Positions 5-33,915 of a stretch of 64,000 nucleotides of DNA are shown here, in pieces. This stretch comes from Candidatus Poribacteria bacterium (lineage in GTDB: Bacteria; Poribacteria; WGA-4E; WGA-3G). Every line of letters begins with the position of its first letter. Positions within the stretch are counted from its first letter, which is position 1. The stretch covers positions 576,001 to 640,000 of the forward strand of contig CBDANF010000003.1 in assembly GCA_965197475.1 (NCBI GenBank), written 5' to 3'. The notes beneath the pieces were generated by a model. It made no database searches. It had not been told where the DNA came from and saw nothing but the letters and a program-made list of their open reading frames with translations. A program made the position numbers and the translations under genes.

Positions 5-2815
5 ATGGAGATGCGCGATATAGCAGATTGGGTGATCCGTTATCGGCTGCAATCAAAGGGCGGTATCGCCAATGTGATTAACATCGGTGGTTATATCAAG
101 CAATTTCAGGTCTTCGTCAATCCTGAACGGTTGGTAAGTTACGGTATTTCACTTGAAGATGTTGCACATGCACTTGAAAAGAGCAATGATAACGCTGCAG
201 GTGGATTTCTTATTAAGGACACGCGTGAGTTGATGATTAGAGGGTTGGGACGGATTTCTTCGGTTGCTGACATTGAAAATGTTGTGATTGATGTCCGAGA
301 ACACAACACACCTGTGCTCGTTAATGATGTCGCAACAGTGAGAATCGGGTCGTTACCAGAGATCCGCCGTGGTGCGGGGAGTCGAAATGGTGAAGAAACC
401 GTTTTAGGCAAGGTAGTTAAGCAACCCGGCATCAATACGCTTACCCTCAGCGATAAAGTGGTTTCAGAACTGGACTCGCTGGAAAAATCGCTGCCAGAAG
501 GAGTAAAAATTGAAGTTGAGTACGCGCAAGCTAACCTAATTCGGCGTGCTGTGGATACGGTCAAAGAAGCACTGCGGGATGGCGCAATCCTCGTTGTTGT
601 TGTCCTGATCATCTTTCTTTTTAATATCCGCACCGCGTTGATTACTCTCACTGCTATTCCGTTATCGTTGATTATCGCGATCATCGTGCTGCTTTCACAG
701 GGAGGCACTCTCAACATCATGACGCTCGCTGGCTTAGCGATTGCTGTCGGAATGGTGGTTGACGATGCGATTGTATACGTTGAAAACATCTTCAGACGAT
801 TACAAGAGTATTTTCATCTGCGTGATTTAGGGAATGAAACTGACGAAACGCCAACGCAGGTGGTGACACGCGCAAGCGATGAGATGCGTGTATCTATAGT
901 TTTTGCAACCTTAATTATTATCCTCGTGTTTTTACCGCTGTTCAGTCTCAGTGGGATTGAGGGCAGAATGTTCCGTCCGCTTGGTTGGGCAGTTGTAATT
1001 TCTATGGCAGCATCGCTACTCGTGGCTTTAACAGTGGTTCCTGTTTTAAGTGATCTACTGCTGGGACGCGTTAGAGATATACCGTTGCATGAACTCATTC
1101 CCATGGTTGACCCCTCAGAAAAACGGGGTCCGTTTACGTGGATAAAACGGGCTTATAACGCTTTTCGAAATCTTGTGGTGCGATGGCGGTTGTTTATTGT
1201 CAAATTGGCACCCGACTCGGATGTTGAAACTGCCTTGACACTTCAACCTGTGGTCATGTGGATCAAACGCGCTTATCGTCCTATTCTATCATTGGTGATT
1301 CGTTTACGTTGGGTTGTTGTAGCAGTTGCGCTCTTACTGGTAATATTAACTTGCGCATCGATTCCTCGTTTAGGTAGGGAATTTTTACCCGTGATGGATG
1401 AGGCAACGTTCACAATCAGCGTGTTTTCACCTCCCGGGACCTCGCTGAATGAATCTACACGTATCGGTCGAGAAATGGAAATTAGACTGGACGAAGAAAT
1501 TCCAGAAGTGACAAGCGTCAGCAGTCGAACCGGGCGCGCTGAAGCGGACGAACACGCGCACGATGTGAATACCCATGAAATCGTGGTCAATTTTGATCCG
1601 CCAGATAAACGTGAGAAAACACGTGAAGACCTCCTCGTTGAAGTGCGGGAGTTGCTTTCCACCGAAAACTTTCCGGGGGTCCAGGTATCCGTTGGACAAC
1701 CGATTCAACACCGCCTTGATCATCTTTTGTCCGGTGTTAGCGCGCAAGTGGCATTGAAACTCTTCGGCCCCGATCTTGACATGCTAAGGCAAAAAGCAGA
1801 AGACATTGAAGCAGTTATGTCGGAGATTGATGGTGTTGCGGATTTACAGGTTGAGCAGCAGGTGCAGATTGAACAACTTCAGATTAAAGTCAAGCGTTTT
1901 GAAGCAGCGCGCTACGGCTTAAGCGTCCAAGACATCACGCATTTCGCAGAAGGGGCTTTCAAAGGCGAAACAGTCAGTCAGATCATTCAGGGACAGCGGC
2001 AGTATGACCTCGTCGTCCGCATTGACCCGACACTTGTCACTACCGTTGAATCGTTCGGCAACCTCAAACTTCGAACGCCTTCAGGCGCATTTATTCCATT
2101 GAAACAGGTGGCAGATGTCAGCTTTGGTTTCGGACCTAATACCATCAATCGTGAGAACGTTTCTCGACGTATCGTGATTCAATGCAACGTGCAGGATAGA
2201 GACCTCGGTAACTTTATTGATGAAGTCAAAAAAGAAATTGAGGCACATGTTGATATACCTGAAGAATATTTCCTCACGTATGGTGGACAGTTTGAAAGTC
2301 AACAGCGCGCACAAAGACGTATTCTAATTCAAACCGGTTTCGTTTTTATTGGTATCTTTATTTTACTGTATCTTGCGATGGGTTCAGTCCGGCTTTCGAT
2401 ATTGGTAATCCTGAATTTACCGTTGGCGTTAATAGGTGGTGTTGTCAGTGTCTTTCTTACAGGTGGCGTGTTGAGTATTCCATCTATGGTTGGTTTTATT
2501 CTATTGTTCGGCATTGCTGTGCGAAATGGCATCATCTTGGTTTCACATATCAATGCGCTTCGTTCAGAAGGCATACCGCTATATGATGCTGTGATGAAGG
2601 GTGCTTCGGAACGGATTAGTCCTGTCTTAATGACAGCTTTAACCACAGGACTTGGGATGCTACCGCTCGCGCTTGCACACGGCTCCGGTGCGGAACTCCA
2701 GAAACCGCTTGCTATTGTCATCAGTGGTGGCATGATTACCGCCACCTTTTTGACGCTGCTTGTTTTACCAGCGTTGTATTACCTTGTTGAAAAACGCGGT
2801 GCTGAAGAATTGTAA
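5..2815 (+). CDS. CusA/CzcA family heavy-metal efflux RND permease (5' end outside window)
   Basis: RND motifs GLAIAVGMVVDDAIVYVEN, GREFLP.MDE, GFILLFGIAVRNGI, R.SPVLMTAL, PLAIVISGG. Confidence 0.93.
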   Translation: MEMRDIADWVIRYRLQSKGGIANVINIGGYIKQFQVFVNPERLVSYGISLEDVAHALEKSNDNAAGGFLIKDTRELMIRGLGRISSVADIENVVIDVREHNTPVLVNDVATVRIGSLPEIRRGAGSRNGEETVLGKVVKQPGINTLTLSDKVVSELDSLEKSLPEGVKIEVEYAQANLIRRAVDTVKEALRDGAILVVVVLIIFLFNIRTALITLTAIPLSLIIAIIVLLSQGGTLNIMTLAGLAIAVGMVVDDAIVYVENIFRRLQEYFHLRDLGNETDETPTQVVTRASDEMRVSIVFATLIIILVFLPLFSLSGIEGRMFRPLGWAVVISMAASLLVALTVVPVLSDLLLGRVRDIPLHELIPMVDPSEKRGPFTWIKRAYNAFRNLVVRWRLFIVKLAPDSDVETALTLQPVVMWIKRAYRPILSLVIRLRWVVVAVALLLVILTCASIPRLGREFLPVMDEATFTISVFSPPGTSLNESTRIGREMEIRLDEEIPEVTSVSSRTGRAEADEHAHDVNTHEIVVNFDPPDKREKTREDLLVEVRELLSTENFPGVQVSVGQPIQHRLDHLLSGVSAQVALKLFGPDLDMLRQKAEDIEAVMSEIDGVADLQVEQQVQIEQLQIKVKRFEAARYGLSVQDITHFAEGAFKGETVSQIIQGQRQYDLVVRIDPTLVTTVESFGNLKLRTPSGAFIPLKQVADVSFGFGPNTINRENVSRRIVIQCNVQDRDLGNFIDEVKKEIEAHVDIPEEYFLTYGGQFESQQRAQRRILIQTGFVFIGIFILLYLAMGSVRLSILVILNLPLALIGGVVSVFLTGGVLSIPSMVGFILLFGIAVRNGIILVSHINALRSEGIPLYDAVMKGASERISPVLMTALTTGLGMLPLALAHGSGAELQKPLAIVISGGMITATFLTLLVLPALYYLVEKRGAEEL

Positions 2816-2878
2816 CCGTTTAATGCTCGCAAAATATTCTTGTGGGAGGGCTTTCTAAGCCCGATGAAGTTGATTTCT

Positions 2879-2911
2879 CTTGTGGGAGGACTTTCTAAGT
2901 CCTCCCACAAG
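2879..2911. repeat. REP-like palindrome / possible terminator after RND gene
   Basis: CTTGTGGGAGGACT-ttcta-AGTCCTCCCACAAG perfect inverted repeat; half copy at ~2840. Confidence 0.7.
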
Positions 2912-3014
2912 AAAATTGGCACTGGCGTTGATTCGTAAATCCTGGTTCAGACAATCCGAGAAATCTGTGTAATCTGTAAAATCCGTGATTCAGACAAACC
3001 ACACATCCAACCCA

Positions 3015-3136
3015 CAGAGCCATTCAATTGTCGATTTTTTACACGTTTATCCGAAAAGTCGCGATTCGGAGATCGCTCCTGCAGAGGAAAGACCGTTAGC
3101 AGAAAGTAGCAACTACTTGAGAATTGAATGGCTCTG
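3015..3136. mobile_element. MITE (122 bp) with 15-bp TIRs CAGAGCCATTCAATT / AATTGAATGGCTCTG; left end of composite island
   Basis: TIRs at 3015-3029 and 3122-3136; the right ~94 bp recur at ~7487-7578 and ~16397-16488. Confidence 0.8.
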
Positions 3137-3363
3137 TCTATAAAAAGAAAATTGGTAGATCTGTATCTACGAGTAAATTCAGGGAAATGGTGTAAATACC
3201 TAAAATTTTGCGAATTTTTAGAAAAAAGTTGAAATTTCTGTAACCTATCTTGCAATACATAACGTTGAATAAGGTATATATGGATATCATGCACGTGCAA
3301 CACAAATTTGTAGTGAGGAAGTTACACCGTCGTTAACCATATTTTGCGTAAGGGGATTTAACA

Positions 3364-3513
3364 ATGAAAAACCGAGATATGAATACCACAATCCAGAAAG
3401 TGACCACGCTGGATGCCTGCCACCTGAGCAGGATTTGCTCACGCAGCATACATCGGTTGGCGAATTTTAACTATAAGTTAATACCCCCCCCCCCCCCACT
3501 TCACATTCGTTAA
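3364..3513 (+). other. Short leader ORF (49 aa) containing a C14 homopolymer (3484-3497)
   Basis: AAGGGGA RBS, ATG 3364, poly-C read as poly-Pro, stop shortly after the tract. Confidence 0.35.
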
Positions 3514-3714
3514 TTTCAATCAATTTATTGGACAAGGTCTTATTGCAGACGTTAGCAGCTGCGATATCTTCGCGCCCGCACGCGCGCTCCGTCTCACACG
3601 GAGTGTCTCGTCGCGGGCTTTTGTTGTTTGTGGAAATAGACGCGATTTATGCTGAATCGTGTCTGATAATTGTTTTAGTTTTACTTGAAAAATTTTAACG
3701 GAGGAGATATAATT

Positions 3715-4158
3715 GTGAAAAAGAAATTTTTTACAGCAAATGTTGATGTGGCAGCTATAGCTGCATTCGGTGGACTTACCGCTATCTCGTTCTTCGCACT
3801 CTTTTTTGAGGAACACGGAATCCGCCTCAGTATCGTTGCACTCGCTATCTCGCTTTGGGGATTCTTGTCCTTAAAACAGATGGATACGGAACAGGAGACA
3901 CAGCGTGTTGAAAAAACCTCGTCTGTTTTTCACAAACCGCAACATCGGAAAAACAGGCGGAGACTCATCACTGCAGTGGTTCTCATTTTGATTAGCGGGG
4001 TTATTCTGTCCGGTGCTATTAAAATGACACGCGCAACACAGATGGATAAACTTGACTGCACAGAACAACCCCGATCTGACAGTATCATATTGGAAAAACA
4101 GGAAACGCCTTGTCCAAAATCAACCATACTGCCCTGCTCGCTGGACGCAGCGGAATAA
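3715..4158 (+). CDS. Hypothetical membrane protein (about 3 TM segments)
   Basis: GGAGGAG RBS before GTG 3715; hydrophobic stretches. Confidence 0.65.
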   Translation: MKKKFFTANVDVAAIAAFGGLTAISFFALFFEEHGIRLSIVALAISLWGFLSLKQMDTEQETQRVEKTSSVFHKPQHRKNRRRLITAVVLILISGVILSGAIKMTRATQMDKLDCTEQPRSDSIILEKQETPCPKSTILPCSLDAAE

Positions 4159-4193
4159 CAGGGATAAACAATCCTAATTCGGAGGATATTTTG

Positions 4194-5036
4194 ATGAAAC
4201 GCAAACTTTACTGGGGACTCGGTGTCCTCATTATTCTACTGATCGGTGTTAGTGCCGTGTTGGTAATCCGACACGAAATGGCGGTACACAAGCAACTCAA
4301 AGCCAATTTAGATGCAGCGAATAAACTGCTTGAAGCACAGAACAAGCCATCAGAAGTGCCGGCTGAAAAAGGGCATGTTCACGATGATGGCACTTTTCAC
4401 GTAGGCGAACATGGCGATCCGATAGTGGAACAAGACGACCCCACGGGTGAACAAAATGAACCCCTAAAACCACCACCATCACGAGACTTCGAACCCGTCC
4501 AAATACAGATACCAGAAGGTATAACAGACCCCGATGTGTTGGCAGCGTGGGAACGACTTGACTACATCGCCAATAATATTTGGGACTGGGGTGGTGTGCC
4601 ATCGCAAGAGACAGAAGAACTGATCGCACAACTTATGCCACCGCCAGATGGGTTTTCGGGTCCCAGCGGACACAGCGATGCCGAAGAGACCATAAATCTA
4701 CTCGGCAGCTTGGATAGAAACGACCCGCGCTCCGCAGAAGTCATGGTGACTTATTACTGTGAGAATATTATCGGGGGGCTTGGTCCACGAAATGCGATAA
4801 TAGATATAGGACCGCCTGCCGTGCCACTGCTGATACCCTATCTGTTTGAAGATGGAAATGCAGAAGCCGTTGCCGCTTTAGGTGGGATAGTCGTAAAGCA
4901 TCGTAAGGAATTAGGGGGTATTGTAGACCATATCATTATTCCAAAATTGGAAGAATATGCGGCAATAGAAGACCCGCCAGGTAAGATGTATTATCCGAGA
5001 AAGTGGGCGCGAGAAGCCCTTGAACTTTTGAAATAA
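4194..5036 (+). CDS. Membrane-anchored His-motif / HEAT-repeat-like protein, copy 1
   Basis: GGAGG RBS; N-terminal MKRKLYWGLG-TM; GHVHDDGTFHVGEH motif; HEAT-like IGPPAVPLLI...AVAAL...AREAL. Confidence 0.75.
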   Translation: MKRKLYWGLGVLIILLIGVSAVLVIRHEMAVHKQLKANLDAANKLLEAQNKPSEVPAEKGHVHDDGTFHVGEHGDPIVEQDDPTGEQNEPLKPPPSRDFEPVQIQIPEGITDPDVLAAWERLDYIANNIWDWGGVPSQETEELIAQLMPPPDGFSGPSGHSDAEETINLLGSLDRNDPRSAEVMVTYYCENIIGGLGPRNAIIDIGPPAVPLLIPYLFEDGNAEAVAALGGIVVKHRKELGGIVDHIIIPKLEEYAAIEDPPGKMYYPRKWAREALELLK

Positions 5037-5066
5037 CCGAAATCTATATATGAAAGGAGAAATCCG

Positions 5067-6875
5067 ATGAAAGTTCGTTATGTTTTCTACATGCTATTAC
5101 TTGTTATCTGTGTGTTAATTCCGTTTCATTTGAGTTCCACAGTAATATCGTTTCATTCGCAGACACCTTGTATTCGTATCAAATCGTGGTCTGTCGGACA
5201 AAGTTCGGGTTATTATGGTAAAGAGAAACTCGCAATAAACATTGGGTCGTTCATTACGAATTCAGAACAGACGTGTTGTGTGCATGTATCGGTGGGTTAT
5301 TGTGATGACCAACCTTCGCAGACCAACATAATGTATCCGATTACTTCGTTTGGATATGAGTTGTCTATGAGTCATGGGTTCGTAGTAGAAAAGGCGGTTT
5401 ATAGTGTGAGTGGTCCGGATGCTGCGTTGTTTGACCCGGCCACAAGTTTTTCTGTGAGTGCGAAGTTTAAGGGACCCAAGGATGAGGAGGAGCTTGTCTC
5501 ATCGTGTAACGGAAATAATGGTCGCGATAACAAACCGATGTGGGTCAAGGTGAAGTTTATTGGCTACTACGGGACGGATCTCGATAACCAAAAGTCCGTT
5601 TCAGTTTCGGGACAGTGGGTACAAGATACAAAAGACAGGATACGGCAGGAATATGTGGATATGACACCACCCGATAGTAGAGCCGAATTGCCGGTGCCTG
5701 GCAGATCGTCATTTGTTTCCACAATCTCAACCGACAACGGTGTGGATCGATGGAATACGGGGCATTATAGTAGTTTCATGATAGATGATGGATTGAAAGG
5801 GAAAAAGGCAGATTGGCTCGCGGAAGTTAATAAAGAACGCAAAAGTAACGGTTTATCCGCGTTTACGGATGCTGATTTTCAGGTGAACAGTGCGTATCGC
5901 AATCCGTATCATCAGCGTTTTCATGTCGGCAAGGGGGCACTTGCTTCATTTCATAGTCGTCATCCGTTTGGCGATGCGTTAGATGTTCACACCCCCGATG
6001 TAAATGGCAATGGCACAGAAGAGCAAGTCTATAAGAATTATGCTAACAGTGCCGATGGCGTTGCTATGCAGCGAGCCGCCGAGTCTAAGTCTGTTGGTGC
6101 TTTGTGGACAGCTTCTTATCTATACTATAGTACGCACACGCATGCGGATTGGACGCTGCGCGTGAAAGATGGCGGGAGTTGGCCTCCGCCGAATGGCACT
6201 GTCTATTCTCCACCGTGTAACATAGATGGAACAGCATCAAGTGGTCCGTATGTGACGGGGGCAACAACGGGCAATGCAGAAGAAACGAATGAAGGTCAAA
6301 CGGGACAGGATACCGGTGGTAGTGAACAGACCACAGATGCTCCTGCCATCGGCCCCTGTGGACATACCTATTGGCTAGGTTCATCCTCGGACTACGACCA
6401 TAGATCAGAAACTTGGGGGTGTGGACATACGATCTATGTTTGTCAATCCAGTTCCCATTCGCTGCAAGCGAGTTGTTCCGAAACGAATGCGAATGGCGAT
6501 AGTTGTACGGTGACAAGTTTCTATGCGTGTCAGACGCATACACACGAGTATCCTGCTGCGCCGAGTTTTGCGCCCAGTTTATCCGTCGGTTCAAGCAGCT
6601 ATAGTGCGGGGAGTTCTTTGTCTCCGGTTGTCACATCTGATGCGCCTATTTACGGTGCGCATTTGTTTGTGCGTGCGCCGGGGGATACAAGCACCTATGG
6701 CACAAAAATAGGCTGGTTTCCTGGGGGTCGCACGACACAGACATTGACGTTGCCTTACACGTTTGCTGCTAATGCTGCGAGTGGCAGCTATAAGATCACT
6801 GCGCGTGTGTATCCGTGGAATGGTGATGCGTGGGGCGATCCGGATTATTTATCTGACTACGTGTCGGTTGAGTAG
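5067..6875 (+). CDS. Secreted protein with peptidase M15-like (LAS zinc peptidase) domain, Cys/His-rich repeats and C-terminal beta-rich domain, copy 1
   Basis: Signal peptide; VNSAYRNP..H...SRHPFGDALD...HTHAD matches M15A S(G/A)YR..SxHxxGxAxD..HxD; CGH/CQ..H repeats. Confidence 0.75.
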   Translation: MKVRYVFYMLLLVICVLIPFHLSSTVISFHSQTPCIRIKSWSVGQSSGYYGKEKLAINIGSFITNSEQTCCVHVSVGYCDDQPSQTNIMYPITSFGYELSMSHGFVVEKAVYSVSGPDAALFDPATSFSVSAKFKGPKDEEELVSSCNGNNGRDNKPMWVKVKFIGYYGTDLDNQKSVSVSGQWVQDTKDRIRQEYVDMTPPDSRAELPVPGRSSFVSTISTDNGVDRWNTGHYSSFMIDDGLKGKKADWLAEVNKERKSNGLSAFTDADFQVNSAYRNPYHQRFHVGKGALASFHSRHPFGDALDVHTPDVNGNGTEEQVYKNYANSADGVAMQRAAESKSVGALWTASYLYYSTHTHADWTLRVKDGGSWPPPNGTVYSPPCNIDGTASSGPYVTGATTGNAEETNEGQTGQDTGGSEQTTDAPAIGPCGHTYWLGSSSDYDHRSETWGCGHTIYVCQSSSHSLQASCSETNANGDSCTVTSFYACQTHTHEYPAAPSFAPSLSVGSSSYSAGSSLSPVVTSDAPIYGAHLFVRAPGDTSTYGTKIGWFPGGRTTQTLTLPYTFAANAASGSYKITARVYPWNGDAWGDPDYLSDYVSVE

Positions 6876-6913
6876 TTGTCCTTTAGATTAGAAAGGGGCG
6901 TGTCTTGGAACTG

Positions 6914-6950
6914 ACAGGCAGATATTCTTTTGGGTATCTGCCTGTTTTTT
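6914..6950 (+). terminator. Intrinsic terminator (copy 2 at 13846-13882)
   Basis: ACAGGCAGATA-loop-TATCTGCCTGT followed by a T tract. Confidence 0.75.
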
Positions 6951-6965
6951 GTAAAGGAGCACTTA

Positions 6966-7439
6966 ATGAAAGTAAAATCCTTCATAACAGGTCTTATCAT
7001 CCCGTTACTCCTCACTGCTGGTATCATTCTATATCTGCAACATGCACCAAAATTGGCACCCGCAACTGAAATTCCGCATCAAAAAGATGTAATAGCAAAT
7101 GTGGAACAACCGAAGGTAAACGCTGTCAATTCCAACACAACTGCAGAAAACCCTGACGCGTTCTATCAGTTGATTATTGACAACAACATCTTCCGTCCAC
7201 TCGGTTGGCAACCGCCCAGAAAACAGCCGGACTATACCCTTATCGGCACAACAGTTTCACAGAACGCAGCAGATTCAAAGGCGTTTATATTGGAGCGGCG
7301 TTCAAATCGCATGCATATCGTCAAAGTTGGGGACACCCTTGACGATGCGCGTGTGAAAGAGATTCAATCGAAACGTGTCACACTGCATGAAGCAGGAAAA
7401 GACATAATCCTGCATGGCGGTAGGCTGCAGTTTTTCTAA
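6966..7439 (+). CDS. GspC/PilP-like (type II secretion protein C HR-domain) membrane protein, copy 1
   Basis: N-terminal TM, linker, NIF, then YTLIGT...AFI...VKVGDTL.DARVKEI.SKRVTL pattern typical of the T2SS-C HR domain. Confidence 0.65.
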   Translation: MKVKSFITGLIIPLLLTAGIILYLQHAPKLAPATEIPHQKDVIANVEQPKVNAVNSNTTAENPDAFYQLIIDNNIFRPLGWQPPRKQPDYTLIGTTVSQNAADSKAFILERRSNRMHIVKVGDTLDDARVKEIQSKRVTLHEAGKDIILHGGRLQFF

Positions 7440-7664
7440 CATCTTCCTCTTCCCACAAGGTTATTTAGTTTTAGACTTTTTGTCCAGTTTATCCGAAAAG
7501 TCGTGATTCGGAGATCGCTCCTACAGCGGAAAGACCGTTATCAGAAAGTAACAACTACTTGAGAATTGAATGGCTCTGTCCAACCCAGAAAAAACCTTGA
7601 ATGATAGAAAAAAATATGCTATAATACTCTCAAACCTGAAATTTGTAAGAAGAGGGAAAGTCAC

Positions 7665-7877
7665 GTGAATTGCGAAATGAGCGAAACACGCATGCGTATC
7701 CTACAACTTTTGAAGATGCGTTCCAGCATGACGGTCAGTCAACTAATTGAAGCACTCCACATCAGTGACATGGGGGTCAGACAACATCTCACTATCCTTC
7801 AAGAAGAAGGTTTGGTTGAATATCATCAAGAAAAGCATGGACGCATCGAAATAACAGGGATAAACAATCCTAATTAG
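7665..7877 (+). pseudogene. Truncated copy of the HTH regulator at 16575, fused to the cassette leader
   Basis: Near-identical to 16575-16754 up to TGGACGC (7838-7844), then switches to the ATAACAGGGATAAACAATCCTAA leader. Confidence 0.85.
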
Positions 7878-7889
7878 GAGGATATTTTG

Positions 7890-9260
7890 ATGAAACGCAA
7901 ACTTTATTGGGGGTTTGCAGCCCTCATTATCCTGATTATCGGCACTGCAGGTGTGTTGTTCATTCAACACAACCGCGCCGAAATGGTGCTCCTTGAAGCG
8001 TTGTCGGATGCCGATAACAGCGATAGTTCACAACAGCAGCCCGCCCAACGTGGCGTTGGTTCTACTGACTACAAAGCCCCCCCGCTCGGTGAAACAGACG
8101 ATACAGGGTATTGGGAAGGAAACACATGGCATCAGAAACCGGCACCCAAACCGAAGAAAAAAGGGTGGTGGAAGACAGGGGATACAAGAAAATATCTTGA
8201 GATGCTTGCCATTACCGGTAACATCCCAAAAGAATTCAGGCCCGACTCCAAAGCTTTTGCCCGGTGGATCATTGCCGAACACCCCTATTCCCAAGCAGCC
8301 CTTGAAGCGAGATTAGTGCTGGGTGGTTGGGGGACATCATATCTAATGGATGCCCTGAAATACCATCCAACATCACCATTACTACACGCAAAAATAGCAG
8401 CCTCTACTTCCAGTCGTCGTTATCCCGAAAAGGTTGTCGCCTTTGCAAAAAAAAAAGCACTCCGCCTGCTTCCCACGACTACCGAAGATACTTCCTATAG
8501 AGGAATATGGAATTCCCCTGCTGTGCTAAGCCACGAATCTTTAGGTCAGGCATATCAGCGATTGGGCGATTACAAATCTGCGTTAGTTCACCTCAAAGCC
8601 GCACAACGTCTTTACAAAACTGGAATTGGGGACGATGACTTAAACATGGACGGATACGAACTGATGTCTAAGTGGATCGCTGGGATAGAAGCGGGGAAGC
8701 CGCTCATAGGACCGAATCCGAAGCCGCATCCGGAGCCGTCCGCCGACTTTCCTTTATCTACTTCACAACCGTCCGCACCTGTGGCCCCTGTAGATGCCGC
8801 CGAACTCCCGCCTGTGCCGTTTGATTTCCCCGCAAGCCCGTCTGATGATATGTTCCGTGCCCCGAACACGTCCTCTTTGTCTCCTTCTGATCAAGGGATG
8901 CGTGAGCGTGAGGCCGCTAAGCAAGCCCATTCAGCGTTTGCCAAACGGCAGCAGCAAGAGTTTGGTGATTTTCTTCGGTGGATGGCGCGTATAGAACAGG
9001 CGAAGTCGCCTGCGGATTTAGAAGATTTTTTGATGCGTGAGATGGCGAAGCACCTGCAAGGTGGTGCTTCCGAGTTCACGCCGGATCGTTTGATCCATGC
9101 GTTTGAAATGGTCAATCGCCACGGAGACGCAGCGGGGATGGTGCATCTGCAAGCGTTGGATCCCGATATTGCGAAAGCGATGTCGCGTCACCCTCAAAGT
9201 AAACGTGTGCCACCGCGCACCGCGCCTGTGCGTCCGAAAACAGTTCATAACCCGAAATAG
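7890..9260 (+). CDS. Membrane-anchored TPR-containing protein (paralogue 1)
   Basis: MKRKLYWG-TM; TPR-like LGQAYQRLGDYKSALVHLKAA; Pro-rich linker; conserved C-terminal module. Confidence 0.75.
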   Translation: MKRKLYWGFAALIILIIGTAGVLFIQHNRAEMVLLEALSDADNSDSSQQQPAQRGVGSTDYKAPPLGETDDTGYWEGNTWHQKPAPKPKKKGWWKTGDTRKYLEMLAITGNIPKEFRPDSKAFARWIIAEHPYSQAALEARLVLGGWGTSYLMDALKYHPTSPLLHAKIAASTSSRRYPEKVVAFAKKKALRLLPTTTEDTSYRGIWNSPAVLSHESLGQAYQRLGDYKSALVHLKAAQRLYKTGIGDDDLNMDGYELMSKWIAGIEAGKPLIGPNPKPHPEPSADFPLSTSQPSAPVAPVDAAELPPVPFDFPASPSDDMFRAPNTSSLSPSDQGMREREAAKQAHSAFAKRQQQEFGDFLRWMARIEQAKSPADLEDFLMREMAKHLQGGASEFTPDRLIHAFEMVNRHGDAAGMVHLQALDPDIAKAMSRHPQSKRVPPRTAPVRPKTVHNPK

Positions 9261-9274
9261 AAAGGAGATTTCTC

Positions 9275-10632
9275 ATGAGACATAAAATGTATTGGGGGCT
9301 TGGAGCTCTCATAATCCTGATTATCGGCACAGCCGGTGTGTTGTTCATGCGGCACAATCGCGCTGAAATGGCACGCTTTGAAAAAGCGTTAGCAGATGCC
9401 GATAACCGGCTACAAGAAAGCGATAGTTCACCCCAGCAGCCCGCCCAACGTGGCGTTGGCTCTCCAACGTATAAACCGCCCCCGCTGGGTGAAACAGAAG
9501 ATACAGGTCACTGGGACGGCAACGTGTGGCATCAAACCGCACCCAAACCGAAAAAGAAAAAAGTGTTGGGCTTGTGGTCACGCGAGATGACTCTGCGAGA
9601 TTACTACGCTGCGATGCCTCAGGGAAATCACAACAATAGACAGACAAAGTTTATGGAAAGCGTTGTTCGAAAACAACCCTATTCAGAGGCGGGCTTTGAA
9701 GCGATGTACAATTTAGCATCAATTAACTCACGTTACAGCAGCGCAGATTATATTGAGAACCTAAAGGGAGTGCTGAAATACCATCCGGAGTCGCCACGCG
9801 TACTCTCAAAGTTAGCGTGGTATACTTCTCCATCTGATTCAAAGTTCCCACCTGAAGAGTCAATAGCGTATGCGAAAAAGGCACTTCGTCTGCTTCCCAA
9901 TAGTTCGGAGGATAATACATGGTTTAAGCTATGGCAGTCCCCCGCTGTGAACATTCATGGGGCATTAGGCTTTGCGTATCAGCGGGTAGGCGATTACAAA
10001 GCTGCGTTGGTTCACCTCAAAACGATACAAAGTCTGCTGAACATGCCTACAAAGCGACTTTGAAGCATATAGCTGCAATAGAAGCGGGGAAGCCGCTCAT
10101 AAAACCCGATCCGAAGCCGCAGCCGGATGCTGCCACCGTTTCGTCTCTATTCCCTCCAGTGCCCGAGCCGGTGTCAGCCCCTAAAGATGCGTCAGATTTT
10201 CCTCCCGTGCCTTCTGATCATCCGGGTTTTGACCCTAACAATCCTTCTTTCGTTCCGTCCGATAAATCTGTTCGTTCGAAACAAGCGTCGGCGCAAGCGC
10301 GTGCGGACTTTGCGCGTCATCAGCAGCAAGAGTTTGGTGATTTTCTGCGGTGGATGGAACGGATAGAGCAAGCGAAGTCGCCTGCAGATTTAGAAGATTT
10401 TTTGATGCGTGAGATGGCAAAGCAGCTGCAAGGCGGTCAATCCGAGTTCACACCGGACCGGTTGATCCGTGCGTTTGAAACGGTCAATCGTCATGGTGAA
10501 ACCGCAGGGATGTCACAGCTGCAACAGTTGGATCCCGATATTGCGAAAGCGATGTCGCGTCACCCTCAAAGTAAACGTGTGCCACCGCGCACCGCGCCTG
10601 TGCGTCCGAAAACAGTTCATAACCCGAAATAG
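9275..10632 (+). pseudogene. TPR protein paralogue 2, frameshifted near 10035-10050
   Basis: ORF 9275-10063 matches the N-terminal half of paralogue 1; another frame (YKATLKHIAAIEAGKPLI... to 10632) matches the C-terminal half. Confidence 0.8.
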
Positions 10633-10646
10633 AAAGGAGATTTCTC

Positions 10647-11084
10647 ATGAGACATAAAATGTATTGGGGGCTTGGAGCTCTCATAATCCTGATTATCGGC
10701 ACAGCCGGTGTGTTGTTCATGCGGCACAATCGCGCTGAAATGGCACGCTTTGAAAAAGCGTTAGCAGATGCCGATAACCGGCTACAAGAAAGCGATAGTT
10801 CACCCCAGCAGCCCGCCCAACGTGGCGTTGGCTCTCCAACGTATAAACCGCCCCCGCTGGGTGAAACAGAAGATACAGGTCACTGGGACGGCAACGTGTG
10901 GCATCAAACCACACCCAAACCGAAAAAGAAAAAAGTGTTTGGCTTGTGGTCACGCGAGATGACTCTGCGAGATTACCGCGCGGCGATGCCCCATGGAAAT
11001 CACGACAATAGACAGACAAAGTTTATGGAAACACCTTGTCCAAGATCAACCACACCACCTTGCCCGCTGGACGCAGCGGAATAA
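10647..11084 (+). pseudogene. Truncated TPR paralogue 3 fused to the tail of the 3715-4158 gene
   Basis: Near-identical to 9275-9659 up to ...TTTATGGAAA, then continues as ETPCP.ST..PC.LDAAE. Confidence 0.8.
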
Positions 11085-11119
11085 CAGGGATAAACAATCC
11101 TAATTCGGAGGGTATTTTG

Positions 11120-11968
11120 ATGAAACGCAAACTTTACCGGGGACTCGGTGTCCTCATTATACTACTCATCGGTGTTGGTGCCGTGTTGGTGATCCGGCAC
11201 GAAATGGCGATACACAAGCAACTCAAAGCCAATTTAGATGCAGCGAATAAACTGCTTGAAGAACAGAACAAGCCATCAGAAGTGCCGAATGAAAAAGGGC
11301 ATGTTCACGAAGATGGCACTTTTCACGTAGGCGAACATGGCGATCCGATAGTGGAACAAGACGACCCCACGGGTGAACAAGATGAACCCCTAAAACCACC
11401 ACCATCACGAGACTTTGAACCCGTCCAAATACAGATACCAGAAGGTATAACAGACCCCGATGTGTTAGCAGCGTGGGAACGACTTGACTACATCGCCAAT
11501 AATATTTGGGACTGGGGTGGTGTGCCATCGCAAGAGACAGAAGAACTGATCGCACAACTTATGCCACCGCCAGATGGGTTTTCGGGTCCCAGCGGACACA
11601 GCGATGCCGAAGAGACCATAAATCTACTCGGCAGCTTGGATAGAAACGACCCGCGCTCCGCAGAAGTCATGGCGACTTATTTCTGTGAGAATATTATCGG
11701 GGGACGTGGTCCGATATATGCGTTGGCAGAGATAGGACCCCCAGCCGTGCCACTCCTGATAAATTACCTGTTTTCTACTGATGGAAACGTAGGAAGGGCA
11801 GTTGCCGCTTTAGAAGAAATTAGCGTAAAGCATCGTAAGGAATTAGGGGGTATTGTAGACCACATCATCATTCCAAAATTCGAAGAATATGCGGCAATAG
11901 AAGACCCGCCAGGTAAGATGTATTATCCGAGAAAGTGGGCGCGAGAAGCCCTTGAACTTTTGAAATAA
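11120..11968 (+). CDS. Membrane-anchored His-motif / HEAT-repeat-like protein, copy 2
   Basis: Near-identical to 4194-5036 except a divergent patch in the HEAT region. Confidence 0.75.
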   Translation: MKRKLYRGLGVLIILLIGVGAVLVIRHEMAIHKQLKANLDAANKLLEEQNKPSEVPNEKGHVHEDGTFHVGEHGDPIVEQDDPTGEQDEPLKPPPSRDFEPVQIQIPEGITDPDVLAAWERLDYIANNIWDWGGVPSQETEELIAQLMPPPDGFSGPSGHSDAEETINLLGSLDRNDPRSAEVMATYFCENIIGGRGPIYALAEIGPPAVPLLINYLFSTDGNVGRAVAALEEISVKHRKELGGIVDHIIIPKFEEYAAIEDPPGKMYYPRKWAREALELLK

Positions 11969-11998
11969 CCGAAATCTATATATGAAAGGAGAAATCCG

Positions 11999-13807
11999 AT
12001 GAAAGTTCGTTATGTTTTCTACATGCTATTACTTGTTATCTGTGTGTTAATTCCGTTTCATTTGAGTTCCACAGTAATATCGTTTCATTCGCAGACACCT
12101 TGTATTCGTATCAAATCGTGGTCTGTCGGACAAAGTTCGGGTTATTATGGTAAAGAGAAACTCGCAATAAACATTGGGTCGTTCATTACGAATTCAGAAC
12201 AGACGTGTTGTGTGCATGTATCGGTGGGTTATTGTGATGACCAACCTTCGCAGACCAACATAATGTATCCGATTACTTCGTTTGGATATGAGTTGTCTAT
12301 GAGTCATGGGTTCGTAGTAGAAAAGGCGGTTTATAGTGTGAGTGGTCCGGATGCTGCGTTGTTTGACCCGGCCACAAGTTTTTCTGTGAGTGCGAAGTTT
12401 AAGGGACCCAAGGATGAGGAGGAGCTTGTCTCATCGTGTAACGGAAATAATGGTCGCGATAACAAACCGATGTGGGTCAAGGTGAAGTTTATTGGCTACT
12501 ACGGGACGGATCTCGATAACCAAAAGTCCGTTTCAGTTTCGGGACAGTGGGTACAAGATACAAAAGACAGGATACGGCAGGAATATGTGGATATGACACC
12601 ACCCGATAGTAGAGCCGAATTGCCGGTGCCTGGCAGATCGTCATTTGTTTCCACAATCTCAACCGACAACGGTGTGGATCGATGGAATACGGGGCATTAT
12701 AGTAGTTTCATGATAGATGATGGATTGAAAGGGAAAAAGGCAGATTGGCTCGCGGAAGTTAATAAAGAACGCAAAAGTAACGGTTTATCCGCGTTTACGG
12801 ATGCTGATTTTCAGGTGAACAGTGCGTATCGCAATCCGTATCATCAGCGTTTTCATGTCGGCAAGGGGGCACTTGCTTCATTTCATAGTCGTCATCCGTT
12901 TGGCGATGCGTTAGATGTTCACACCCCCGATGTAAATGGCAATGGCACAGAAGAGCAAGTCTATAAGAATTATGCTAACAGTGCCGATGGCGTTGCTATG
13001 GAGAATGCTGCCACAGATAAGTCTGTTGGTGCTTTGTGGACAGCTTCTTATCTATACTATGGTACGCACACGCATGCGGATTGGACGCTGCGCGTGAAAG
13101 ATGGCGGGAGTTGGCCTCCGCCGAATGGCACTGTCTATTCTCCACCGTGTAACATAGATGGAACAGCATCAAGTGGTCCGTATGTGACGGGGGCAACAAC
13201 GGGCAATGCAGAAGAGACGAATGAAGGTCAAACGGGACAGGATACCGGTGGTAATGAACAGACCACAGATGCTCCTGCCATCGGCCCCTGTGGACATACC
13301 TATTGGCTAGGTTCATCCTCGGACTACGACCATAGATCAGAAACTTGGGGGTGTGGACATACGATCTATGTTTGTCAATCCAGTTCCCATTCGCTGCAAG
13401 CGAGTTGTTCCGAAACGAATGCGAATGGCGATAGTTGTACGGTGACAAGTTTCTATGCGTGTCAGACGCATACACACGAGTATCCTGCTGCGCCGAGTTT
13501 TGCGCCCAGTTTATCCGTCGGTTCAAGCAGCTATAGTGCGGGGAGTTCTTTGTCTCCGGTTGTCACATCTGATGCGCCTATTTACGGTGCGCATTTGTTT
13601 GTGCGTGCGCCGGGGGATACAAGCACCTATGGCACAAAAATAGGCTGGTTTCCTGGGGGTCGCACGACACAGACATTGACGTTGCCTTACACGTTTGCTG
13701 CTAATGCTGCGAGTGGCAGCTATAAGATCACTGCGCGTGTGTATCCGTGGAATGGTGATGCGTGGGGCGATCCGGATTATTTATCTGACTACGTGTCGGT
13801 TGAGTAG
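11999..13807 (+). CDS. Secreted peptidase M15-like protein, copy 2
   Basis: 602 aa, identical to copy 1 except QRAAES>ENAATD, S>G and S>N. Confidence 0.75.
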   Translation: MKVRYVFYMLLLVICVLIPFHLSSTVISFHSQTPCIRIKSWSVGQSSGYYGKEKLAINIGSFITNSEQTCCVHVSVGYCDDQPSQTNIMYPITSFGYELSMSHGFVVEKAVYSVSGPDAALFDPATSFSVSAKFKGPKDEEELVSSCNGNNGRDNKPMWVKVKFIGYYGTDLDNQKSVSVSGQWVQDTKDRIRQEYVDMTPPDSRAELPVPGRSSFVSTISTDNGVDRWNTGHYSSFMIDDGLKGKKADWLAEVNKERKSNGLSAFTDADFQVNSAYRNPYHQRFHVGKGALASFHSRHPFGDALDVHTPDVNGNGTEEQVYKNYANSADGVAMENAATDKSVGALWTASYLYYGTHTHADWTLRVKDGGSWPPPNGTVYSPPCNIDGTASSGPYVTGATTGNAEETNEGQTGQDTGGNEQTTDAPAIGPCGHTYWLGSSSDYDHRSETWGCGHTIYVCQSSSHSLQASCSETNANGDSCTVTSFYACQTHTHEYPAAPSFAPSLSVGSSSYSAGSSLSPVVTSDAPIYGAHLFVRAPGDTSTYGTKIGWFPGGRTTQTLTLPYTFAANAASGSYKITARVYPWNGDAWGDPDYLSDYVSVE

Positions 13808-13897
13808 TTGTCCTTTAGATTAGAAAGGGGCGTGTCTTGGAACTGACAGGCAGATATTCTTTTGGGTATCTGCCTGTTTTTTGTAAAGGAGCACTTA

Positions 13898-14371
13898 ATG
13901 AAAGTAAAATCCTTCATAACAGGTCTTATCATCCCGTTACTCCTCACTGCTGGTATCATTCTATATCTGCAACATGCACCAAAATTGGCACCCGCAACTG
14001 AAATTCCGCATCAAAAAGATGTAATAGCAAATGTGGAACAACCGAAGGTAAACGCTGTCAATTCCAACACAACTGCAGAAAACCCTGACGCGTTCTATCA
14101 GTTGATTATTGACAACAACATCTTCCGTCCACTCGGTTGGCAACCGCCCAGAAAACAGCCGGACTATACCCTTATCGGCACAACAGTTTCACAGAACGCA
14201 GCAGATTCAAAGGCGTTTATATTGGAGCGGCGTTCAAATCGCATGCATATCGTCAAAGTTGGGGACACCCTTGACGATGCGCGTGTGAAAGAGATTCAAT
14301 CGAAACGTGTCACACTGCATGAAGCAGGAAAAGACATAATCCTGCATGGCGGTAGGCTGCAGTTTTTCTAA
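13898..14371 (+). CDS. GspC/PilP-like protein, copy 2
   Basis: Protein identical to 6966-7439. Confidence 0.65.
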   Translation: MKVKSFITGLIIPLLLTAGIILYLQHAPKLAPATEIPHQKDVIANVEQPKVNAVNSNTTAENPDAFYQLIIDNNIFRPLGWQPPRKQPDYTLIGTTVSQNAADSKAFILERRSNRMHIVKVGDTLDDARVKEIQSKRVTLHEAGKDIILHGGRLQFF

Positions 14372-14642
14372 CATCTTTCTCTTCCCACAAGGTTATTTAG
14401 TTTCGCAATAAGTAGTTTTGGACTTGCAACAAACATGTAAAAATCGCTACAAACACAGATGTAGACTACATTTCCACTTGTTTTAATTGTGCAACTATGA
14501 TACAATATAGATAAGAAAGTAGGGGGTTGGTAGCCCCCTAAATGAACACAAAAAGCGAGTTGCTTTTTGACGGTTCTAATCTTATCTGGTATTATATCAG
14601 AAATCCGTCAGAAAAAGCAACTCCTATTTCAAGGAGTATCTG

Positions 14643-15527: not shown

Positions 15528-15533
15528 GTGAAA

Positions 15534-15905
15534 CTAAAGGTACCCAGGGCGTTTCTTTGCATGATCCGCGGGTTCAGGCGGTGCTTGCAGCACAGATGGC
15601 GGAAGCTCGAATGTCTTTTGATCCGAATTCAAAGCTTCGAGAATATTTTGGAACAATGTATAGCAATCTGACTCGGATTGGAAGATGCCCAAATTGTAGA
15701 GAAAAGTTGATTGGTTCGATCCATGAGCGTCTACATGTTTCAACAGAGTCAGATTGAACAAGTTTGATTCGTTGTTCTTGATGATCACAATTTCATCATA
15801 AATATTAAGATTTACGGCTAATGGACAAAATCCAGTGATTTGTTCAGGTTTTGGAAATATGATTAACATGATAGTTCCTTTGTGAGTTAGAGGGGACAGG
15901 GGCAC
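15534..15905 (-). CDS. IS passenger gene, hypothetical (likely start 15869)
   Basis: ORF inside the IS; AAAGGA RBS-like sequence before MLIIF; overlaps an alternative + strand ORF 15524-15757. Confidence 0.45.
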   Translation of the reverse strand: MPLSPLTHKGTIMLIIFPKPEQITGFCPLAVNLNIYDEIVIIKNNESNLFNLTLLKHVDAHGSNQSTFLYNLGIFQSESDCYTLFQNILEALNSDQKTFELPPSVLQAPPEPADHAKKRPGYL

Positions 15906-15917
15906 CTCGTTGTTGGG

Positions 15918-33821: not shown

Positions 33822-33915
33822 ATACACACTCACAAATACGGAACATTTCTTAGATTGACGCTTATGGGTTTCGCTGCGCTCTACCCAACGGACATCTACA
33901 TTTGGATCTTATTAT

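Follow-up and report, generated by a model that had tools for sequence, protein, structure and literature searches.

MITE-bounded composite transposons are an already known kind of mobile element. Tn3-derived composites make 5-bp duplications, IS231-type MICs are known in Bacillus cereus, and elements of the ISAs1 family usually duplicate 8–10 bp of target (ISfinder). The yeast LTR retroelements Ty3 and Ty1, which are tethered by Pol III factors, insert upstream of a transcription signal at a constant spacing. The closest described bacterial composites are TIME-COMP of Pseudomonas, in which a pair of miniature non-autonomous elements forms the composite (Szuplewska et al., 2014; PMC4133298), and the 'integron mobilization unit', a composite of the same kind (mentioned in PMC5444012). 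In MICs, passenger genes without a transposase lie between IS-type inverted repeats, carry a TSD and are presumed to be mobilised in trans, an example being the qnrS2 cassette of the Aeromonas plasmid pAC3 (PMC5444012). Composites formed by MITE derivatives of the ISAs1 family were not reported in the literature searched.

The locus studied here lies in a 64,000-nt stretch of a Candidatus Poribacteria genome (the window, on contig C3), in which the 9-mer TCCAACCCA at 3006–3014 adjoins a left TIR and is identical to the right copy of the target-site duplication at 7579–7587. An exact-match scan located CAGAGCCATTCAATT at 3015–3029 (+) and at 3122–3136, 7564–7578 and 16474–16488 (−), and at up to two mismatches there were five matches versus 0.26 expected from shuffles. 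Exact copies of TCCAACCCA number three (3006, 7579 and 16489; 0.51 expected, with 1 of 100 shuffles reaching three). The right TIRs ending at 7578 and 16488 are followed by TCCAACCCA, and the one ending at 3136 by TCTATAAAA. The outermost inverted-repeat pair, 3015–3029 with 7564–7578, both exact, brackets 4564 bp whose flanking bases are identical at 9/9 positions, a match with a chance of about 4e-6. The preliminary description had reported a 4.56-kb unit within matching TIRs and a TSD, and this observation is confirmed as correct; its third 9-mer at 16489 was real, yet is not independent evidence because it lies within a segmental duplication.

The left element, MITE1 (3015–3136, +; TIR scan), is a complete ISAs1-derived MITE of 122 bp with perfect 15-bp TIRs, and a congener's 1327-bp IS has a TIR identical to the left tip of MITE1, CAGAGCCATTCAATTGTCGA. 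The right-hand end had been taken for a bare TIR; sequence comparison revealed instead a complete element of 123 bp in the same orientation (MITE', 7456–7578, +), with a variant left end, CAAGGTTATTTAG, from a sister sub-family (CAGGGCTATTTAG), a right ~100 bp that is 92% identical to MITE1, and a perfect right TIR. Neither MITE holds a notable ORF according to the ORF list. Comparison of TIR-pair flanks gave a match of just 4/9 for MITE1 on its own, and MITE' is flanked by CTCTTCCCA on the left versus TCCAACCCA on the right, about 5/9 by reading of the letters.

This arrangement resembles TIME-COMP and the integron mobilization unit in that two transposase-less miniature elements surround unrelated genes, the outer inverted repeats bound the unit, a TSD surrounds the whole, and the transposase would act in trans. 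Those composites are Tn3-derived, were caught moving on trap plasmids and carry resistance or recombination genes, whereas the putatively mobile window unit has ends derived from an ISAs1-family IS, a 9-bp duplication, MITEs of different sub-families and a secreted-peptidase cassette as cargo. In a MIC, a single pair of IS ends immediately encloses the cargo; the window unit has a complete MITE at each end and hence three usable ends, and the small MITE1 could move alone.

The MITE family is represented in this genome by 62 BLAST segments, of which 11 are other full-length copies. Among TIR pairs 100–200 bp apart (n = 23), a flanking repeat was present in 9/23 under a strict rule (at least 8/9 of a 9-mer, or a perfect 10-mer repeat) and in 13/23 under a looser one that also allows 9/10. 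Because the duplications at solo MITEs are unrelated (9–10 bp, all different in sequence, none equal to TCCAACCCA), the 9-mer is not a part of the element that flanks every copy. MITE1 and MITE' are shorter than ~300 bp and have TIRs and no transposase gene, and the family occurs as dispersed copies with varying TSDs alongside an autonomous IS with the same termini, as is characteristic of MITEs.

This autonomous IS was found in congeners, as intact copies of 1327–1329 bp with the TIR CAGAG[G/C/T]CATTCAATTGTCGA and 9–10-bp duplications. Its one ORF encodes a 399-aa transposase (L039:604-1803), which scores 214.4 bits against NF033564 (ISAs1; cut-off 70), 75.6 against PF13808 and 45.1 against PF01609; an ORF of ~400 aa, TIRs starting with CAG and duplications of this length are shared with the ISAs1 family (NF033564; PF13808 + PF01609). 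Judged from sequence, the cognate element is this 1327-bp ISAs1-family IS. The search for it was fruitful in congeners only; this genome (assembly 92.7% complete, 6.97% contaminated) yielded no intact cognate transposase, all 26 transposase matches being fragments, and its IS remnants are internally deleted relics of 452–885 bp, one of which reaches 28.6 bits for PF13808, under the 32.3 cut-off. These results fit the earlier remark that the unit contains no cognate transposase, and the neighbouring IS1595-family element indeed has ends unlike the MITE TIRs. Since all matches are fragmentary, mobilisation needs a helper that was lost or is unassembled, and for want of an intact cognate transposase in the assembly the unit is probably immobile now.

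A second MITE–cassette–MITE unit, of 5418 bp, is present on contig C2 (C2:361420-366837). Its inner junctions are the same as those of the window unit (GGCTCTG/TCTATAAAAAGAAAATTGGTA and TTCCCA/CAAGGTTATTTAG), the sequence outside the unit is unrelated, and the unit is flanked by a repeat of its own, GCATAAATT/GCATAAATA (= GCATAAAT[T/A]), which matches at 8/9 and is thus not perfect. Sub-family-specific bases are common to both composites up to 13–21 nt from each tip (..CAATTGTCGA.. and ..ACTTGAGAATTG..), and the two copies of MITE1 are 95% identical. A scan of 40 genomes of the genus found the MITE1–leader junction only in these two composites; a donor locus showing the inner half-sites that would be expected did not turn up in the TIR-pair survey. 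Internally, the two units are strongly diverged (leader 81% identical, just a 93-aa module shared by the large protein, TPR-like genes unrelated), so that exchange of cargo by recombination must be added to any account. As in a composite transposon, two copies surround cargo, the TSD lies on the whole and not on the individual MITEs, and the arrangement occurs at more than one site.

We consider it probable, at roughly 0.75, that a MITE-bounded composite transposon moved the cassette as a whole. Two complete ISAs1-derived MITEs in the same orientation would have enclosed a leader, a small membrane protein, TPR-like proteins, a secreted M15/LAS-type peptidase and a GspC-like protein, and a transposase supplied in trans would have acted on the two outermost TIRs, the left one of MITE1 and the right one of MITE'. 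The whole block would have moved with what appears to be the family's usual 9-bp staggered cut, landing at TCCAACCCA so that 18 bp separate its right end from the downstream −35 of an ArsR-type regulator, in the family's preferred geometry. The earlier proposal that a non-autonomous unit with MITE ends was delivered whole gains support from the C2 unit with its identical inner junctions. From the sequence comparisons, we infer that the secreted-protein genes have travelled together, as a block, into two or more sites of this genome, and that every landing was at a short and constant spacing ahead of a promoter.

The preliminary description had offered a circle recombined into a resident MITE as its other option, and this is now the weaker rival. 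In its general form, which we regard as unlikely, solo MITEs already stood at TCCAACCCA and at the C2 site, and the cassette was copied in without transposase, by homologous recombination, gene conversion or single crossover of a circle. This route leads to the same end product, a repeat around the whole and inner MITE ends without repeats; cassette paralogs do recombine often (mosaic composites; a 3.7-kb duplication in the window), a solo MITE would obey the promoter spacing too, and one base close to the right end of the C2 MITE' is MITE1-like. However, the route needs the same rare sub-family at both sites, and the genome has no solo copy of that sub-family, every other full-length copy being at most 83% identical; moreover, the sub-family bases reach so close to both tips, in both copies, that almost no room for a crossover is left.

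An assembly artefact, either a mis-join at the repeated MITEs or a collapsed or expanded tandem cassette repeat, is very improbable. The completeness and contamination values, the abundance of MITEs and cassette paralogs, and short Logan contigs that break throughout the region lend it some plausibility. A mis-join, however, explains neither the matching 9-mers at the two outer edges nor a second unit that is flanked by a matching pair of its own; one Logan contig (359 nt, three differing letters) spans 2720–3074 and so crosses the left junction into MITE1, another stops at 7844, the very point of divergence between the two copies, and the cassette copies differ at 2.3% of positions, one of them holding an IS with its own 8-bp duplication. 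Just as improbable, and already contradicted, is a native cassette with MITEs inserted on either side and a 9-mer that is part of the element, a preferred target or chance, for although TCCAACCCA follows two right ends in the window and the family does show target preference, those two cases are one duplicated block, no other family copy carries the 9-mer, independent insertions would give each MITE a repeat of its own that neither has, a 9/9 match has the small chance given above with no conserved bases at positions 0–17 outside the family's ends, and congeners lack the cassette at both flanks.

The latter was seen in 6/6 congeners examined, where the 10 kb that follow the RND gene and the 6–7 kb that precede the regulator contain no cassette. 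The empty site with a single TCCAACCCA, proposed earlier as a check in related genomes, was not found, nor was any other pre-insertion state; two exact-match scans of metagenome contigs gave no matches, and the Logan contigs contain no usable joint. The closest genomes are only 80–91% identical at the locus; there the RND gene lies apart from the regulator, and conservation does not extend upstream of the −35.

Downstream of the unit lies a truncated copy of the regulator gene (7665–7877, +), whose homology to the full gene stops at 7844 on the heptamer TGGACGC (7838–7844). Three diverged TPR-like paralogs follow (7845–11026, +; 7887–9260, the 9275–10632 region and 10647–11084), then a second cassette copy (11027–14403, +) with the 308/310-aa, 602-aa and 169-aa genes and the first 16 nt of MITE', 97.7% identical to 4101–7471. 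This second MITE' is interrupted by an IS1595-family IS (14404–16373, +; 294-aa transposase, 29-bp perfect IRs) flanked by the 8-bp duplication TTTAGTTT; the segment 16374–16497 (+) holds the rest of MITE' (to 16488) and the duplicated TCCAACCCA (16489–16497), and the full-length ArsR/HTH_20-type regulator, gene of the targeted promoter, lies at 16575–17261 (+). The segmental duplication pairs 4101–7844 with 11027–14403 plus 16374–16754 and extends 266 bp beyond the 9-mer. Because 7464–7844 and 16374–16754 are 98.7% identical over 381 bp, the MITE, 9-mer, promoter and first ~60 regulator codons form one duplicated block.

In the composite-transposon reading, a later copying error using the heptamer three times would have duplicated this block together with the cassette, so that the two cassette copies came to enclose the TPR-like array, and the IS1595-family element would then have inserted in the distal MITE'. 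The array probably belonged to the original cargo; the unit was probably ~7.8 kb at insertion, including 7845–11026, and its present 4.56 kb are probably the outcome of later duplication and deletion.

The cassette opens with the conserved non-coding 'leader' of its family (3137–3684, +), which has a poly-C tract of variable length, is 79–91% identical over ~440 nt at 9 other loci, and has no match in Rfam. A 157-aa small membrane protein (M; 3685–4158, +), the last ~19 codons of which are repeated at 11027–11084, is followed by a 308-aa protein (4110–5036, +) of unassigned family, whose N-terminal ~77 aa are common to the TPR-like paralogs at 7887, 9275 and 10647; its former label 'HEAT' is not supported, as no Pfam family at E ≤ 10 and no NCBIfam matched. 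The 169-aa protein (6930–7439, +) has a weak likeness to T2SS protein C, with 22.7 bits for PF11356 (cut-off 27) and 34.6 for NF041515 (cut-off 150), so 'GspC-like' denotes local similarity only. This genome contains ~10 paralogous loci of the cassette family, and since MITEs adjoin only 2/10 leader-bearing loci and 3/12 GspC-like genes, the MITE ends do not belong to the cassette family.

The largest product is a 602-aa secreted or anchored protein (5067–6875, +), characterised through its homologs and predicted fold. The model suggests an N-terminal helix, an Ig-like sandwich (aa ~32–191), a LAS/M15-type Zn-peptidase fold (aa ~205–375; pLDDT mostly 70–96) and a Cys/His-rich tail. Residues H299, G302, A304, D306 and H359 are invariant across 26 aligned homologs, which we take to be the M15/LAS Zn-ligand motif SxHxxGxAxD ... 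HxH (H-x6-D ... H). When the model was compared with 48,161 chains by VIA-align, the Zn DD-peptidase 1lbu_A was the sole chain with Z ≥ 8 (Z 9.0, rmsd 2.7, 109 residues, covering model residues 221–366), and the Hedgehog N-domain, Ply500, LysB4, VanY, VanX and VanXY gave Z 6.0–7.2. Pfam returned nothing for the protein itself at E ≤ 10; PF08291 is precomputed for 4/67 homologs, and a profile search of the PDB reached just E 0.89, to an M15C domain. The earlier name 'M15 peptidase' thus holds at the level of the predicted fold, which is supported.

The position of the unit relative to the regulator is part of a wider pattern. Ends of the IS/MITE family sit 18–19 bp upstream of a −35 hexamer in this genome and genus-wide, the spacing rule being seen in 34/40 genomes of the genus, and both composites obey it. 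In the window, the −35 of the regulator's promoter-like site TTGAAT-17-TATAAT (7597–7625, +) starts 18 nt from the right transposon end, which bears out the earlier claim of delivery just upstream of this promoter; the left end of the C2 composite lies 17 nt from TTGCAA-17-TATAAT. The regulator promoter is kept in 6/6 congeners examined. A tentative reading, to which we give slightly less than even odds, is that the ISAs1-lineage transposase reads promoters, placing an end 18–19 bp upstream of a sigma-70-type −35 in either orientation, with a target layout of a 9–10-bp duplication, ~9 bp and then TTGACA. The hexamer might be recognised directly, or the transposase might dock on promoter-bound RNA polymerase. 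Full-text searches of the literature returned no report of a fixed promoter spacing for the ISAs1 family, and the rule has apparently not been described previously.

Like this family, Ty3 and Ty1 insert at a set distance ahead of a transcription signal and so spare coding sequence; they are eukaryotic LTR elements, whereas this is a bacterial DDE transposon for which −35 recognition is as possible as a tether. If true, the rule would be a bacterial counterpart of their 'safe-haven' strategy, composites would deliver whole cassettes to a predictable spot before resident promoters, and insertion would replace the promoters' upstream (UP-element or activator) DNA. If the transposase determines the spacing, the family would offer a simple natural system for promoter-directed insertion and a ready-made promoter map for organisms beyond the reach of cultivation. 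Most known MITE-bounded composites concern plasmid-borne resistance genes; in the present case, an arrangement of the same kind would shift a cassette for a secreted cell-wall peptidase around the chromosome of an uncultured lineage, and the nearest named homologs are from Candidatus Poribacteria. Because the cassette belongs to a polymorphic family of ~10 loci, the composite would show one way in which such families spread and shuffle.

The cassette in the window, consisting of a leader and genes for a small membrane protein and for proteins of 308, 602 and 169 aa, is flanked by two miniature elements in the same orientation, MITE1 and MITE′. The TIR CAGAGCCATTCAATT is exact at 3015 on the plus strand and at the minus-strand ends 3136, 7578 and 16488, and five matches with ≤2 mismatches occur in the window against 0.26 expected. 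As reported in the preliminary description, the 9-mer TCCAACCCA immediately precedes the left TIR at 3015 (3006–3014) and immediately follows the right TIR ending at 7578 (7579–7587), bracketing a unit of 4564 bp, while the first right TIR (3136) is followed by TCTATAAAA instead; with a further copy after the right TIR ending at 16488, the 9-mer occurs three times in the window, against 0.51 expected. MITE1 (3015–3136) is a complete MITE of 122 bp. A 5′ truncation of MITE′, for which BLAST homology to MITE1 begins only at MITE1 position 21, was ruled out by family alignment: aligned with other family members, MITE′ (7456–7578) is complete at 123 bp, with a left end (CAAGGTTATTTAGTTTTAGAC) matching that of a sister sub-family (CAGGGCTATTTAGTTTTAGAC, e.g. 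C3:3938022, on the contig of the window) and a right part of ~100 bp that is 92% identical to MITE1. The structure is therefore a classical compound one, in which the cargo lies between two entire elements of like orientation.

The same cargo was looked for elsewhere between these ends, and a second unit was found on contig C2 of the source genome (G000) at C2:361420–366837 (5418 bp, minus strand), with a MITE1 copy at its start and a MITE′ copy at its end. Both inner junctions, GGCTCTG/TCTATAAAAAGAAAATTGGTA and TTCCCA/CAAGGTTATTTAG, recur exactly as in the window copy, with unrelated DNA beyond the outer ends, and the unit has its own flanking repeat (GCATAAATT and GCATAAATA, 8/9 matching). 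Positions 1–706 of its 5418 are 81% identical to window 3015–3766, positions 709–913 are 97% identical to 3946–4150, and the last 418 bp are 96.7% identical to 7161–7578. The middle differs from the window copy and encodes a 509-aa TPR protein; a 711-aa protein has only a 93-aa Cys/His module (81% identical) in common with the window's 602-aa protein, and a 155-aa GspC-like protein is 64% identical to its counterpart. Since matching repeats bound the unit at each of two unrelated sites and the inner junctions are identical, the MITE1–cassette–MITE′ unit probably formed once and was inserted whole at least twice, its cargo being reshuffled with paralogs later. Searches for a donor locus, with TCTATAAAA adjoining a left TIR or a right TIR adjoining CTCTTCCCA, gave no matches at ≤2 mismatches. 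Recombination into a resident MITE would yield the same picture, and its end product would be indistinguishable from a composite insertion; however, it would require that the resident element came from a sub-family of which G000 has no solo copy, as well as crossovers within 13–21 nt of both tips, and we consider it unlikely.

Insertion of a composite also agrees with the behaviour of the wider family. MITE1 returned 62 BLAST segments from the 5.7-Mb G000 genome, in which the window is C3:576001–640000. Among them are 11 other full-length family copies, ten at 71–83% identity to MITE1 and one, on C2, at 95%. Flanks were compared for 23 TIR pairs spaced 100–200 bp apart: seven have 9-mers matching at ≥8/9 and two have perfect 10-mers, a strict tally of 9/23, and four more matching at 9/10 bring a looser tally to 13/23. 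One pair matching at 8/10 was left out, and the 9-mer cases at C3:376 and C3:3239602 have identical flanks and represent one duplicated locus. The preliminary description had recognized that the 9-mer might flank all MITE copies as part of the element; this is contradicted by the repeats of the solo copies, which are all different (GTTATTTAT, ATATAAACC, GAGTTGTAG, GATGGAAAA and others) and do not include TCCAACCCA among the pairs surveyed in G000. The survey thus argues that TCCAACCCA arose as a target duplication, its length being the usual one for the family; a chance match of the 9-mers is contradicted by the data as a whole. A degenerate relic of a related MITE, with the right end CAGAACCTTTCAATT (2 mismatches), lies at 18760–18876, ~100 bp upstream of an 895-aa gene at 18980.

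The second right end can be traced to a segmental duplication. By self-BLAST, 4101–7471 matches 11027–14403 (97.7% over 3377 bp) and 7464–7844 matches 16374–16754 (98.7% over 381 bp), and a perfect 29-bp inverted repeat (14404–14432/16345–16373) bounds an IS1595-family element (14404–16373, 294-aa transposase, 8-bp duplication TTTAGTTT) that sits inside the distal MITE′ copy. The inverted repeats of this element begin CGCAATAAGTAG and differ from the MITE TIRs, as had been stated, and it arrived later than the segmental duplication. Without the element and its 8-bp duplication, the block 4101–7844 reads as a copy of 11027–16754. It takes in the cassette with MITE′ and TCCAACCCA, followed by the promoter and the initial ~60 codons of the downstream regulator. 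The proximal regulator copy is truncated at 7844 (70-aa ORF) and the distal copy is whole (228 aa, HTH_20/ArsR). The heptamer TGGACGC lies at every junction of the 3.7-kb duplication (4142–4148, 7838–7844, 11068–11074 and 16748–16754), which suggests microhomology-mediated template switching. What comes after 7844 is the beginning of the TPR-like array at 7845–11026 (ATCGAAATAAC...) rather than the 308-aa gene (AGCGGAATAAC...), and left of 4142 the duplicate copies are only ~79% identical. In the simplest reading, an original composite of ~7.8 kb would have carried the genes for the small membrane protein, three TPR-like proteins, the 308-aa protein, the peptidase and the GspC-like protein; two microhomology template switches, or else a tandem duplication and then a deletion, would have come next, and the IS1595-family insertion last. 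Because the duplicated block includes MITE′ and TCCAACCCA, the 9-mer at 16489, present as first noted, should not be counted as independent evidence, and the 4.56-kb bracketed unit, although correctly delimited, is best regarded as a derived state. Other repeats in the window include a 97-bp inverted pair (18595–18691/21796–21892) and tandem or dispersed arrays at 27567–28737, 33900–35345 and 38174–38603 (periods ~68, 112, 190 and 200 bp, 97–99% identity).

In the congeners examined, the two flanks of the unit occur apart and without it. The end of the upstream RND gene is present in 28/31 genomes, and neither cassette proteins nor the regulator lie within 10 kb downstream of it in any of the six congeners examined, so that no relative among these carries the cassette here without MITE ends. 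The 190-bp spacer from the RND gene to the 9-mer (2840–3000) is built of other short dispersed repeats, which (query positions 517–566 and 654–698) recur at many sites in G000 and congeners. The regulator–ferredoxin locus occurs in all 18 congeners sampled; its homology begins 9–72 nt past the 9-mer position and the promoter (TTGAAT/CTTGAA...TATAAT) is kept, while upstream of the −35 the sequence is unrelated between species, and within 6–7 kb upstream of the regulator neither TCCAACCCA nor the cassette nor the RND gene was found in six congeners examined. The empty site with a single 9-mer, envisaged earlier as a check, was found neither in congeners, where the regulator does not adjoin the RND gene and the region upstream of the −35 is not conserved, nor in metagenome contigs, where exact 24-nt scans with the right and left flanks gave 0 matches each. 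Outside the two G000 composites, the MITE1–leader junction was found in none of 40 genomes, which, together with the cassette-free flanks of congeners, indicates that the cassette is lineage-specific at this site. Two sequencing runs, from the same sample and study, contain the stretch as short Logan contigs; one contig bridges 2720–3074 and another stops at 7844, which adds to the case against a mis-assembly, a reading already contradicted by the matching 9-mers on both sides and by the second unit. None of the contigs listed spans the whole unit, and the uncovered parts are uninformative. The many joints from 3078–3084 to 7496–7505 in these contigs were rejected as excision products, since the letters between the two sides differ and identify other MITE copies.

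An autonomous IS with these TIRs, the expected partner, was found in congeners and only as fragments in G000. Elements of 452–885 bp with MITE-type TIRs in G000 carry transposase remnants, one of which scores 28.6 bits, below cut-off, against DDE_Tnp_1_assoc. A remnant query found relatives in 28/40 genomes of the genus, G000 included, with open frames of up to 426 aa. The cognate IS measures 1327–1329 bp at five congener loci and 1336 bp at a sixth; its TIRs begin CAGAG(G/C/T)CATTCAATTGTCGA..., equal to the MITE1 tip over 20 nt in one congener, and it is flanked by duplications of 9 bp (ACCAAATCT) or 10 bp (ACTAGATCCA). On the NCBIfam ISAs1 model, whose cut-off is 70, the 399-aa transposase encoded by one copy reaches 214.4 bits; it also matches PF13808 and PF01609. 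The usual duplication in the ISAs1 family is 8–10 bp. No intact cognate transposase was found in G000, where all 26 matches are fragments of at most ~127 query residues, so the helper is missing from this assembly. A 1356-bp IS was first suggested as the autonomous partner by a copy lying between CAGAGC...GGCTCTG ends at C2:877484–879192; this copy lies inside a longer MITE-like element, and the candidate was rejected because its own ends (CTGATATTTATC.../...GAAATATCAG) differ from the MITE TIRs. It has a 323-aa ORF weakly similar, below cut-offs, to IS701/IS4 transposases, and ~20 near-full-length copies in G000 (e.g. C3:773110–774473) plus fragments; most copies are 92–99% identical, and the element is thus probably active.

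The cargo belongs to a cassette family at ~10 G000 loci, which have in common a ~440-nt leader (79–91% DNA identity), a small membrane protein, TPR-like proteins, a large variable protein and a GspC-like protein; MITEs of the present family adjoin only 2/10 leader loci and 3/12 GspC-like genes. The leader (3137–3684, plus nine other loci, e.g. C3:1159252, C3:3672797, C2:611991 and C2:1191399) precedes every cassette of the family and is better conserved than the proteins behind it. It has an RBS–ATG with a ~49-codon frame whose substitutions show no synonymous bias. Its poly-C run (~8–14) differs in length between loci, as could result from phase variation or from sequencing error in a homopolymer; no Rfam match was obtained for 2800–7800 at E ≤ 1. 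The 602-aa protein (5067–6875) has 67 homologs, two of them named Candidatus Poribacteria and four carrying PF08291, and in an alignment of 26 sequences H299, G302, A304, D306 and H359 do not vary. In its AlphaFold model (mean pLDDT 65, residues 398–602 unreliable), residues 32–191 form an Ig-like domain, and the best VIA-align match is the Streptomyces Zn DD-peptidase 1lbu (Z 9.0, rmsd 2.7, 109 residues), followed by other LAS enzymes. The peptidase fold surfaced only with VIA-align: Foldseek with the whole model returned only Ig-like domains, phmmer against PDB gave no match and the ESM Atlas no usable match. The original label of M15 peptidase is therefore backed by predicted fold and motif, though not by a Pfam match on the protein itself; similarity to GspC is present in the 169-aa protein but sub-threshold, and HEAT repeats in the 308-aa protein are unsupported by Pfam search. 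Residues 404–496 of the 602-aa protein form a Cys/His-rich module of ~90 aa (GPCGHTYW...CQTHTHEYP), predicted by AlphaFold to be disordered, with paralogs at C2:362344–362616, C3:2833372 and C2:1191826. The module is ~80% identical between otherwise unrelated large cassette proteins and could serve metal binding or export in a polymorphic family of secreted proteins.

The insertion sites of the family have a regular position relative to promoters. In G000, offsets 0–59 outward of each of 125 distinct TIR ends (CAGAGCCATTCA, ≤1 mismatch) were scanned, and a TTGACA-like hexamer (≤1 mismatch) starts at offset 18 in 15 ends and at offsets 17 and 19 in six each, compared with 0–4 at every other offset and likewise in the opposite orientation. 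Promoter-like sites, defined by a −35 and a TAnnnT −10 of ≤2 mismatches each and a 16–18-nt spacer, accompany 33/125 ends (13/64 left, 20/61 right) when the −35 starts at offsets 17–19, against 1–5/125 at five other offset triplets. Positions 0–17 outside the ends have no conserved bases, and the −35 hexamer thus does not belong to the element. Among the genomes of the genus, an element end followed after 6–34 nt by TTGACA occurs in 34/40 genomes (G000 and 33 congeners; reversed control 0). Among the 150 of 276 matches listed, the gap is 18 in 43, 19 in 48 (91/150 for the two) and 17 in 12, and the other 47 are spread over 26 lengths; intact IS copies account for some of these ends, e.g. beside G044:C3:550469 and G042:C1:139518 in two genomes of the genus. 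The right end of the window composite lies 18 nt from TTGAAT-17-TATAAT (within 7579–7625) and the left end of the C2 composite 17 nt from TTGCAA-17-TATAAT; both insertions conform to the rule. The spacing could come from a transposase that reads the hexamer or docks on RNA polymerase, or from a pattern sharpened by selection. No precedent for the rule was found in the openly accessible full-text literature.

Movement has been demonstrated for TIME-COMP, in which two miniature elements form a composite (PMC4133298), and MICs and integron mobilization units are described (PMC5444012); this kind of unit is therefore already known. As in TIME-COMP, two miniature elements make up the composite here, but movement was shown for TIME-COMP whereas the window unit is known from sequence. 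What is new is the ISAs1 origin, the ends drawn from different sub-families, the lineage of the host, the cargo, and a target set by its spacing to a promoter.
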